Origin: Escherichia coli
GTDB taxonomy: Bacteria > Pseudomonadota > Gammaproteobacteria > Enterobacterales > Enterobacteriaceae
Reading direction: 5' to 3' (one strand)
Assembly (NCBI RefSeq): GCF_041886205.1
Contig: NZ_CP169029.1
DNA length: 64,000 nt
In this document: positions 24,425 through 54,917 of the stretch, piece after piece
Layout of the letters: each line of letters begins with the position of its first letter
How positions within the stretch are numbered: position 1 is the stretch's first letter
The notes under the pieces: generated by a model
Told to the model about the DNA's origin: nothing
Seen by the model: the letters and a program-made list of their open reading frames with translations, nothing else
Database searches by the model: none
Program-made: the position numbers and the translations under genes

Positions 24425-24648
24425 GATTTGTAGCAGGATGCGGCGTTGACCCCGCATCCGGCAATCAACGTCTGATGCGACGCTTGCGCGTCTTATCAGA
24501 CCTACAACCGCTGCCACATGTCGGCTGAGGCGCTCACGCCGCATCCGACAATCAACGTCTGATGCGATGCTTGCGCGTCTTATCAGACCTACAAACGTTG
24601 CCACATGTAGGCTGGATAAGGCGTTCACGCCGCATCCGGCAATACAAG
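24425..24648. repeat. BIME cluster: tandem REP elements between yggM and hemW
   Basis: Three copies of gccgcatccggcaa / gtctgatgcga(c/t)gcttgcgcgtcttatcagacctacaa palindromic units. Confidence 0.75.
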
Positions 24649-52619: not shown

Positions 52620-53699
52620 ATGTCTAAGATTTTTGATTTCGTAAAACCTGGCGTAATCACTGGTGATGACGTACAGAAAGTTTTCCAGGTAGCAAAAGAA
52701 AACAACTTCGCACTGCCAGCAGTAAACTGCGTCGGTACTGACTCCATCAACGCCGTACTGGAAACTGCTGCTAAAGTTAAAGCGCCGGTTATCGTTCAGT
52801 TCTCCAACGGTGGTGCTTCCTTTATCGCTGGTAAAGGCGTGAAATCTGACGTTCCGCAGGGTGCTGCTATCCTGGGCGCGATCTCTGGTGCGCATCACGT
52901 TCACCAGATGGCTGAACATTATGGTGTTCCGGTTATCCTGCACACTGACCACTGCGCGAAGAAACTGCTGCCGTGGATCGACGGTCTGTTGGACGCGGGT
53001 GAAAAACACTTCGCAGCTACCGGTAAGCCGCTGTTCTCTTCTCACATGATCGACCTGTCTGAAGAATCTCTGCAAGAGAACATCGAAATCTGCTCTAAAT
53101 ACCTGGAGCGTATGTCCAAAATCGGCATGACTCTGGAAATCGAACTGGGTTGCACCGGTGGTGAAGAAGACGGCGTGGACAACAGCCACATGGACGCTTC
53201 TGCACTGTACACCCAGCCGGAAGACGTTGATTACGCATACACCGAGCTGAGCAAAATCAGCCCGCGTTTCACCATCGCTGCGTCCTTCGGTAACGTACAC
53301 GGTGTTTACAAGCCGGGTAACGTGGTTCTGACTCCGACCATCCTGCGTGATTCTCAGGAATATGTTTCTAAGAAACACAACCTGCCGCACAACAGCCTGA
53401 ACTTCGTATTCCACGGTGGTTCCGGTTCTACTGCTCAGGAAATCAAAGACTCCGTAAGCTACGGCGTAGTAAAAATGAACATCGATACCGATACCCAATG
53501 GGCAACCTGGGAAGGCGTTCTGAACTACTACAAAGCGAACGAAGCTTATCTGCAGGGGCAGTTGGGTAACCCGAAAGGCGAAGATCAGCCGAACAAGAAA
53601 TACTACGATCCGCGCGTATGGCTGCGTGCCGGTCAGACTTCGATGATCGCTCGTCTGGAAAAAGCATTCCAGGAACTGAACGCGATCGACGTTCTGTAA
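52620..53699 (+). CDS. fbaA: Fructose-bisphosphate aldolase class II
   Basis: MSKIFDFVKPGVITGDDVQKVFQVAKENNFALPAVNCVG..., 359 aa. Confidence 0.97.
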   Translation: MSKIFDFVKPGVITGDDVQKVFQVAKENNFALPAVNCVGTDSINAVLETAAKVKAPVIVQFSNGGASFIAGKGVKSDVPQGAAILGAISGAHHVHQMAEHYGVPVILHTDHCAKKLLPWIDGLLDAGEKHFAATGKPLFSSHMIDLSEESLQENIEICSKYLERMSKIGMTLEIELGCTGGEEDGVDNSHMDASALYTQPEDVDYAYTELSKISPRFTIAASFGNVHGVYKPGNVVLTPTILRDSQEYVSKKHNLPHNSLNFVFHGGSGSTAQEIKDSVSYGVVKMNIDTDTQWATWEGVLNYYKANEAYLQGQLGNPKGEDQPNKKYYDPRVWLRAGQTSMIARLEKAFQELNAIDVL

Positions 53700-53723
53700 G
53701 ATATTCCTTTCTGCTTATCTCAA

Positions 53724-53748
53724 GGCCCGCTCTGCGGGTCTTTTTTTC
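53724..53748 (+). terminator. Rho-independent terminator of fbaA
   Basis: Hairpin cccgc-tct-gcggg followed by TTTTTTT. Confidence 0.65.
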
Positions 53749-53756
53749 GCCAAAAG

Positions 53757-53870
53757 CAAAATTGCCTGATGCGCTACGCTTATCAGGCCTACACGTATCC
53801 TGCAATATATTGAATTTGCAGGTTTTTGTAGGCCGGATAAGGCGTTCACGCCGCATCCGGCATGACAAAG
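53757..53870. repeat. REP elements
   Basis: gcctgatgcgctacgcttatcaggcctac and ggccggataaggcgttcacgccgcatccggca palindromic units. Confidence 0.7.
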
Positions 53871-54056
53871 CGCACATTGATATCTGTCTGAGCCCCGCTC
53901 TGCGGGGATTTTTTCGCTAAAAGCAAGGTGATTCAGATGAGAAATCTGTGATCTATTTGGCAAAATTATGCTTTATTGTTTACCCTTGTCAGACTGCCCG
54001 TCATAAGGCGGCGGAGTGTATTTCTCCATTTTGAGTCAGTTGAAAAGGAATATTGA

Positions 54057-54917
<861 letters not shown>

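Follow-up and report, generated by a model that had tools for sequence, protein, structure and literature searches.

The spacer between fbaA and mscS was analysed in a 64,000-nucleotide stretch of Escherichia coli DNA (contig NZ_CP169029.1; this stretch is referred to as the window). It contains one BIME-1, an element in which two inverted REPs surround an L linker, and on each side of this element lies a copy of the fbaA terminator. We consider it probable (roughly 0.8) that the two terminator segments are the copies of a target-site duplication around a BIME-1 that inserted at the fbaA terminator in an ancestor within Escherichia. The locus is a well-behaved BIME-1 insertion polymorphism, and the hairpin-sized target duplication is a clue to the insertion that is possibly undescribed.

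The first copy of the direct repeat (36 nt, positions 53724..53759, or from 53723 with the preceding A; + strand, as for all features below unless stated otherwise) is the native intrinsic terminator of fbaA plus 12 nt (CGCCAAAAGCAA). Its stem-loop lies at 53722-53742 and its U7 tract at 53741-53747, and it is identical to the lone terminator of the short allele described below. The second copy (35 nt, 53892..53926) is a second terminator, with a stem-loop at 53893-53907 and a U6 tract at 53909-53914, followed by CGCTAAAAGCAA. Both were found by a terminator scan; copy 1 folds at -14.1 kcal/mol (9-bp stem, U7) and copy 2 at -11.6 kcal/mol (6 G-C pairs, A+U6). The copies align as AG[G/C]CCCGCTCTGCGGG[TCT/-GA]TTTTTTCGC[C/T]AAAAGCAA, with identity in 32 of 37 columns and 1 gap. 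Compared with copy 1, copy 2 has a compensatory change from G.T to C-G, one broken pair and one T fewer.

A preliminary description of this DNA had noted that a terminator-like hairpin recurs on both sides of the REPs. The direct repeat was borne out by the alignment and by its local score of 26, the highest in the 357-nt spacer, which none of 300 dinucleotide shuffles reached (mean 11.2, maximum 17). The limits of the two segments had been drawn slightly too wide; their final 5-6 bases (aattg / ggtg) fall outside the repeat and belong to the left end of BIME-1 and to the downstream flank. That two independent GC-rich terminator hairpins came to resemble each other by chance has a practically negligible probability. 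Intrinsic terminators do share a generic GC stem and T run, but here the identity includes the loop, and the pairwise alignment showed that the match continues past the hairpin: 17 of the 18 nucleotides after the stem (TTTTTTCGCYAAAAGCAA) are identical, including the non-hairpin bases that follow the T-tract, so that the resemblance exceeds that of a generic hairpin. Moreover, the 13-mer core CCCGCTCTGCGGG occurs at only these two sites in the window (0.16 expected, allowing up to 1 mismatch), and the indel that separates the alleles removes exactly one copy. Position 53918, in copy 2 (CGCTAAAAGCAA), is a T in the window and a C in K-12 and most strains; an 83-nt stretch of the window is matched at 99% or more by only 11 genomes.

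The 132 nt between the copies (53760..53891) form a complete BIME-1 (RIP/RIB), with a left end that is truncated relative to the 153-nt family consensus GAGACTGATGACAAACGCAAAAYTGCC...GTCAACAATCTGA. What had been taken for a REP cluster does contain REPs, and these are the parts of a single BIME-1. From left to right they are a Y-type REP in inverted orientation (iREP; 53764..53792, GCCTGATGCGCTACGCTTATCAGGCCTAC; inverted-repeat pairs I1 and I6), which is kept in all aligned BIME-1 copies, the L linker (53800..53821, CTGCAATATATTGAATTTGCAG), of which this is the sole copy in the window, and a Z-type REP with a 5' GTAG (53828..53862, GTAGGCCGGATAAGGCGTTCACGCCGCATCCGGCA; palindrome I2), with a partial match to the REP-derived Rfam family naRNA4 at 53831-53866. 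The element closes with a conserved right-end motif (53863..53891, TGACAAAGCGCACATTGATATCTGTCTGA; family consensus ATGAACAAAGCGCACGTTGTCAACAATCTGA). The L linker is the IHF-site motif, for which binding of IHF is described in the literature. Rfam family ES036 matched at 53785-53827 on the - strand (47.3 bits against a gathering score of 37.6). ES036 is the CssrF 'small RNA' and its match here is the BIME-1 L linker; what the model represents appears to be the core of a DNA repeat, not a single-locus small RNA gene.

Most of the 120 metagenomic copies introduced below align end to end with the BIME-1 consensus, with GAGACTGATGAC... and ...GTCAACAATCTGA as the true ends. The aligned copies at fruA-psuK, cueO-gcd, entD-fepA, yajD-tsx and one other locus (5 loci) likewise showed one conserved element, the 28-nt right end included. 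That the 28 nt before copy 2 are a spacer of local DNA was ruled out, as they are this conserved right end. When 53756-53892 was searched in 5,426 E. coli genomes, those that are empty here matched elsewhere over 100% of the length with ~85% identity. An import of this spacer together with copy 2 from elsewhere in the genome was also ruled out; the combination occurs at one place per genome. The element thus has the Y and Z REPs in inverted arrangement, the L linker and the position of a single extragenic unit at the 3' end of a transcription unit that mark a BIME-1, the exceptions to the single unit being two rare derived two-unit alleles (SW070917 and E1V33). Its presence or absence as a whole among isolates at fbaA-mscS is a further BIME-1 trait. 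The outer end GAGACTGATGAC and the reverse complement of GTCAACAATCTGA match at 9 of 12 positions, counted by eye from the consensus, which is not independent evidence because the whole BIME-1 is an imperfect palindrome. The end motifs are also alike in direct orientation (ATGACAAACGCAAAATTG / ATGAACAAAGCGCACGTTG). Both ends contain C|TGA (GAGAC|TGATGAC, CAATC|TGA), which resembles the type I site of TnpA(REP), TGCC|TGAT (PMC3333891), and GTAG-REP hairpins are present in the BIME-1 at fbaA-mscS. The window does not contain the tnpA(REP) gene, though no search aimed at it was made. The exact L motif gave 0 matches in viral contigs, and record NC_000913 has no repeat_region features at the fbaA-mscS locus.

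Two alleles accounted for nearly all E. coli genomes searched. The long allele, with BIME-1 and two terminators, was present in about 3,780 of 5,425 genomes; the short allele, found in 1,642, is exactly 167 bp shorter (132 + 35), lacks BIME-1 and has one terminator of the copy-1 type joined directly to the sequence that is otherwise found after copy 2. Together (~3,781 and 1,642) they made up 5,423 of the 5,425 genomes. An allele with both terminator copies and no REP between them, which the preliminary description had named as a case that would contradict it, was not found among these genomes.

Orthologous spacers outside E. coli were collected by a scan of species-representative genomes with MscS. 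Of the 80 loci, ~25 were mscS paralogues without fbaA upstream and were dropped, leaving about 55. In Citrobacter, Klebsiella, Enterobacter, Kosakonia, Kluyvera and others the spacer is 174-194 bp long (186-192 bp in the five genera named) and has one terminator and no BIME. Because these outgroup genera have one terminator, the single terminator is ancestral and the duplication came with the element. The claim that the duplication was made by BIME insertion is therefore supported both by the one-terminator allele that is 167 bp shorter and by the one-terminator outgroups. In E. whittamii, which is also of the long type, the junctions agree with those in E. coli; the right end of the element has a consensus-like form there (GTCAACAATCTGA), and the hairpin of copy 2 has decayed. 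E. coli, E. whittamii and Escherichia sp. E1V33 share these atypical junctions, which points to one common origin. The short allele is carried by two divergent lineages labelled 'E. coli' in the genome collection, one of them E69 (CP089930.1).

The same footprint, which the preliminary description had left out along with the polymorphism and the identity of the spacer, was seen as a general property of BIME-1 insertions. Metagenomes were scanned with a BIME-1-specific pattern derived from the L linker motif; this gave 120 loci, which reduced to 35 unique genomic sites, 24 of them complete at both ends. As a null for flank repeats we used mismatched left and right pairs, with 50 nt from each side (mean 6.5, 99th percentile 10). 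A direct repeat abutting the junctions was found at p<0.01 in 9 of the 24 complete sites, where 0.24 were expected, and in one more site at p=0.03. The repeat was the local GC hairpin every time (17-26 nt). The right hairpin copy begins 0-5 nt downstream of ...TCTGA, with the whole T-tract behind it, and the left copy keeps its upstream A-tract and only 1-3 T, ending just before GAGAC. The duplication lengths (17, 19, 20, 20, 21-22, 23, 26 and, at fbaA, 36 nt) track hairpin size. Elements at sites with a repeat were nearer to the consensus (median score 240 versus 224, one-sided p=0.014), as expected if the repeat decays with age. No tetra- or pentanucleotide was shared by the BIME-1 targets beyond the T run.

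At four loci (fbaA-mscS, fbp, metE-ysgA and artJ-rlmC) filled and empty sites could be paired, each with a lone hairpin when empty and two when filled. At fbp the filled site reads ...AACGCCGGATTGCTCCGGCGTTT|GAGAC...TCTGA|AACGCCGGATTGCTCCGGCGTTTTT and the empty site has a single AAAAACGCCGGAGCAATCCGGCGTTTTT; this comparison rests on the raw sequences, MAFFT having misplaced the right flank. The fbp terminator of the empty allele (GGAGCAATCC) differs from both filled copies (GGATTGCTCC) by an inversion of its loop and inner stem, a 'flip' polymorphism of the palindrome. At metE-ysgA the filled site reads ...CGGGTGGTAACACCACCCGT|GAGAT...TCTGT|CGGGTGGCAACGCCACCCGTTTTT and the empty site in E. coli has one hairpin. 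At artJ-rlmC three alleles exist within E. coli: empty, with both hairpin copies, and with the right copy only. The last is that of E. coli BS15R-A, in which BIME-1 begins 2 nt after the artJ stop (TAATT|GAGAC); compared with the two-copy allele it lacks 24 nt, and the elements of these two filled alleles share only ~84% identity. The layout of hairpin, element and hairpin was also present at fruA-psuK, with an intact BIME-1 in B2 strains. K-12 has at this locus a remnant with left-end and L-like motifs, in which the REPs are mostly gone, between two related hairpins (GGGCAGAAATTTCCTGTCC / GGGCAGATTATTTTCTGCCC); it looks like a decayed BIME-1.

It is very unlikely that the terminator was duplicated first, for instance in tandem and selected as a fail-safe, and that BIME-1 entered between the copies later. 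RNA 3' ends from both copies in vivo are compatible with such a fail-safe, as is the compensatory change in copy 2, which preserves the stem. However, a two-copy allele without BIME-1 is missing among the E. coli genomes, the outgroups have one copy, and copy 2 begins flush with the end of BIME-1. In addition, the layout recurs at 9-10 other unrelated loci with one-hairpin empty alleles, so that the same coincidence of two steps would be needed each time.

The RNA 3' ends were taken from published K-12 Term-seq (Adams et al. 2021, PMC7815308, Supplementary file 1), and their coordinates agree with the positions mapped from the window. Ends at the 5th-6th U of copy 1, classed as primary for fbaA, were reported at 3070119 in LB at an optical density (OD) of 0.4 (160,555 reads), at 3070118 in LB at OD 2.0 (54,607 reads) and at 3070119 in M63 (120,854 reads); an end at the last U of copy 2 (3069950) was reported in LB at OD 2.0 with 44,902 reads and classed as orphan (PMC7815308). 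Because the ends fall in both U-tracts, they support the view, already taken in the preliminary description, that two tandem terminators follow the epd-pgk-fbaA operon. Copy 1 is the working fbaA terminator and does most of the work. The 3' end at copy 2 may reflect termination or processing. This copy would catch read-through; it is evolving more freely and has decayed in E. whittamii.

From these footprints we tentatively propose, at a confidence just short of even, that integration of BIME-1 duplicates the entire target terminator hairpin as a rule, and that the length of the duplication (17-36 nt) is set by DNA structure and not by a fixed enzyme stagger. Structure would set this length because the duplicated stretch equals the stem-loop to within 0-3 nt. 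On the reading held as probable above, the ancestral fbaA-mscS spacer was about 190 bp long with one terminator, and the event added the 132-nt BIME-1 and a second 35-36 nt copy (stem-loop, T-tract and 12 bases), or 167 bp. Judging from the footprints, one side of the element DNA would have been joined immediately 3' of the hairpin foot and the other side at the 5' foot, an outcome that two routes could produce. In route A, symmetric breaks would be made 0-3 nt 3' of the hairpin on each strand, the element would be joined to the 3' ends, and the gaps would be filled in. In route B, a nascent strand would leave just past the copied hairpin, copy a donor BIME-1 that is itself bounded by hairpins, and re-prime at the 5' foot of the target hairpin.

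The left junction at fbaA has 8/10 microhomology between target (CCAAAAGCAA) and element (ACAAACGCAA), and the element lacks its first ~20 nt, which favours route B or a later conversion at this junction. Microhomology exactly at this place, with the loss of the element's start, is also what would be left by template switching without a transposase, in which a paused nascent strand copies a BIME-1 elsewhere via microhomology and returns upstream of the hairpin. The duplication would then be the by-product of two switches, and the 'ends' of BIME-1 would be limits set by the donor hairpins. Such an origin is possible, if distinctly doubtful to us. In its favour are also the TCT.AGG-type microhomology at the right junction, the coincidence of the canonical junctions with T and A runs common to donor and target, and the dependence of duplication length on the hairpin, as if the hairpin set the points of exit and re-entry. 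On the other hand, the element ends are uniform over at least 24 loci (GAGAC... / ...TCTGA), which favours an enzyme-defined process over microhomology of 1-3 nt. Template switching is in any case a sub-hypothesis of hairpin-sized target duplication (route B) and does not contradict it.

The flanking repeats are substrates for unequal recombination or slippage, giving clean loss and tandem gain. The unit concerned is the 167 bp formed by BIME-1 and one repeat copy (53760..53926), which can be inserted, deleted or amplified. With the predicted amplification junction (copy 2 followed by the left junction of BIME-1) as query, one exact match was found in 5,426 genomes, in E. coli SW070917 (NZ_CM129862.1). 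This strain has a perfect (100%) tandem duplication of the unit, with a spacer of 524 bp, three terminators and two BIME-1. Two BIME-1 and three terminators were also present in Escherichia sp. E1V33. The expansion that the preliminary description had allowed for as an alternative to insertion thus does occur, as a tandem duplication of the whole unit in these two strains.

The short state is found next to the long state on closely related haplotypes. Over 3.5 kb upstream, EcN (short) is separated from K-12 (long) by 1 single-nucleotide polymorphism (SNP), and over the first 2.5 kb downstream by none; A3024 (short) has 5 SNPs relative to the window (long) over 3.5 kb downstream; the EcN/K-12 background and the A3024/window background are 51-72 SNPs apart. 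Because the flanks within each pair are near-identical, both states exist on both backgrounds, which could be due to recurrent loss or to short-patch transfer. It is quite possible, though we lean somewhat against it, that the long allele is ancestral for E. coli and that every short allele is a secondary, precise excision via the repeats, not an 'empty site'. The identical junctions in E. whittamii, E. sp. E1V33 and E. coli are consistent with this, as are the short alleles on haplotypes nearly identical to long ones and the existence of the reciprocal duplication product. However, the two divergent 'E. coli' lineages are short, short-patch homologous transfer of one allele or the other would account for the identity of the flanks just as well, and a hybrid hairpin (left part of copy 1, right part of copy 2) was found in 0 of 1,642 short alleles. 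This question concerns polarity inside E. coli only; duplication with insertion stands because other genera have one terminator. In E69 the flanks are mosaic: the 3' end of fbaA resembles that of E. coli (4 differences from the window in 380 nt) and the 5' end of mscS that of E. whittamii (7 differences from E. whittamii, 52 from the window), and therefore a recombination breakpoint lies in or next to the spacer.

Several points weigh against an insertion that duplicates its hairpin target. The mechanism is inferred from footprints only, and the left junction at fbaA is atypical (truncated end, repeat running through the T-tract) and may have a non-canonical origin. No flanking repeat was present at 14 of the 24 complete BIME-1 loci, and five complete loci have a strong hairpin on the left only, so that hairpin duplication is not universal or is often lost. 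TnpA(REP), the obvious candidate enzyme, needs GTAG-REP in vitro and cuts at C|T (PMC3333891); the T-tracts in which the target would have been broken have no C|T, and the related IS200/IS605-type transposition makes no target duplication (PMC3333891). The absence of hybrid hairpins speaks against frequent crossovers inside the stem; had deletion via the repeats happened again and again, a hybrid would be expected now and then, so that part or all of the short alleles may have been empty throughout. Inside E. coli the change may have been a loss or a short-patch transfer of the filled allele, and no E. coli type strain, E. albertii, E. fergusonii or Salmonella was among the genomes recovered by the MscS scan.

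Positions 53600-54120 of the window are 100% identical to E. coli strain LHM10-1 and 99.6% identical to K-12. The coding sequence of fbaA (class II fructose-bisphosphate aldolase) runs from 52620 to 53699, with a translation that begins MSKIFDFVKPGV and a stop at 53699 according to the RefSeq annotation of the identical region in other strains. It is the last gene of epd-pgk-fbaA, and its terminator is the insertion target. The downstream neighbour is mscS (54057..54917). The 357 nt between them hold, in order, a terminator, two inverted REPs and the second terminator, followed by a region upstream of mscS (about 53940-54056) that is conserved and was not touched by the BIME-1 insertion. In orthologous spacers the block TGTGATCTATTTGGCAAAA...TTATTGTTTACCCTT within this region (53940-54056) is kept across genera and the remaining spacer is not; the block is presumably the mscS promoter or regulatory region, with BIME-1 inserted just upstream of it. 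Open reading frames called by program over the spacer (53618-53920 on the + strand, 53715-53963 and 53443-53877 on the - strand) were rejected as genes; they consist of terminator and REP DNA and are missing in 30% of strains. The other sub-threshold Rfam matches in the region (mir-944, MIR2587, mir-1206, GcvB, AS-pc01, Afu_513 and weak naRNA4 matches; E 0.2 to 7) were attributed to chance. Elsewhere in the window, two adjoining naRNA4 (REP325-type) matches above the gathering score at 24432-24589 suggest a tandem BIME-2-like REP array, and an ALIL pseudoknot (IS3-family frameshift element, 107 bits) at 2694-2810 indicates that an insertion sequence of the IS3 family lies close to the window's first positions.

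REPs and BIMEs are among the most abundant enterobacterial repeats, and forty years after their discovery the way they spread is still called unknown (PMC8266576). The footprint provides a testable constraint in four parts: an element flush with the hairpin on both sides, a duplicated hairpin, clean empty sites and a repeat that decays with age. If the proposed hairpin duplication on integration holds, it would be the first insertion footprint for the REP/BIME family. Simple peel-and-paste of the IS200/IS605 type would be ruled out in favour of either breaks made symmetrically on the two strands, 3' of the hairpin foot, or template switching triggered by the hairpin, and each insertion would be intrinsically reversible and amplifiable via the repeats that it creates. 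The location of BIME-1 at the 3' ends of transcription units would follow from terminators being the target, and its all-or-none polymorphism from flanking repeats that allow clean loss and tandem gain. At this locus, the number of terminators that separate a highly expressed glycolytic operon from mscS is one, two or three depending on the E. coli strain, and in K-12 both terminators appear to be used. If the footprint is already contained in the older literature, the locus is an ordinary, well-documented BIME-1 insertion polymorphism.

Compared with the BIME-1/RIP/RIB of Gilson, Bachellier and Hofnung, Boccard and Prentki (1993) and Oppenheim (1993), as these are summarised in PMC3333891, PMC1187871 and PMC2817692, the element at fbaA-mscS has the same Y and Z REPs inverted around the L linker, a length of about 140-150 bp, one copy per locus and an extragenic position at the 3' end of a transcription unit; it differs only in its truncated left end. 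Of the total length of BIME-1, 71% lies in strain-variable 'loops' (PMC1187871), and presence and absence among isolates has been described (PMC1187871, citing Bachellier 1997). A flanking repeat of the host terminator hairpin was not found described in BIME/REP reviews and primary literature, a coverage outside which key papers of the 1990s fall, and the novelty of the hairpin-duplication footprint is provisional.

The REPIN/RAYT system (TnpA-REP; PMC3333891, PMC3337134, PMC8266576) shares with our locus the REP doublet as a non-autonomous mobile unit and offers a candidate enzyme of the HUH Y1 type, whose substrates are single-stranded hairpins and which is able to cut away from the REP; published amplification models permit the capture of flanking DNA. 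It differs in that peel-and-paste makes no target duplication, and in that TnpA(REP) uses GTAG-REP and C|T, whereas the target breaks proposed here lie in T-tracts beside non-REP hairpins. The lack of target duplication and the specific target of IS200/IS605-like elements thus do not fit a duplication of 17-36 nt. The mechanism by which REPs and BIMEs disseminate has been stated to be unknown (PMC8266576), and REPs have been said to be without MITE or transposon-like signatures (PMC3184786). With MITEs and insertion sequences that have terminal inverted repeats and target-site duplications (PMC3184786), BIME-1 shares a short non-coding body, a direct target duplication, clean empty sites and perhaps imperfect terminal inverted repeats. 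A direct repeat that is single in the empty site, as in MITE-like elements, was indeed found in the four filled/empty pairs. The duplications of MITEs and insertion sequences are, however, of a fixed 2-14 bp set by transposase stagger, and those of BIME-1 have 17-36 bp and follow the target hairpin.

Bacterial class C group II introns also target terminators or palindromes. IS1397 and ISKpn1 insert in REP loops (PMC2817692, PMC1525189), and REPs 'inserted within small palindromes' have been reported in Thermomicrobium and Halothiobacillus (PMC3733652). All of these, like BIME-1, use a stem-loop at gene ends as a safe harbour that spares coding sequence; they differ in that they enter after or inside the palindrome and leave inverted halves or a single hairpin, not two direct whole hairpins. 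Finally, the 0-, 1- and 2-unit alleles bounded by 35-36 nt repeats are those of repeat-mediated deletion and tandem amplification (RecA-independent slippage or unequal crossing-over; PMC5426353), and the perfect 167-bp tandem of SW070917 is the reciprocal of such a deletion. The mechanism is an ordinary one; the difference is that the repeat on which it acts here arose when the element itself inserted, so that the insertion can be undone.

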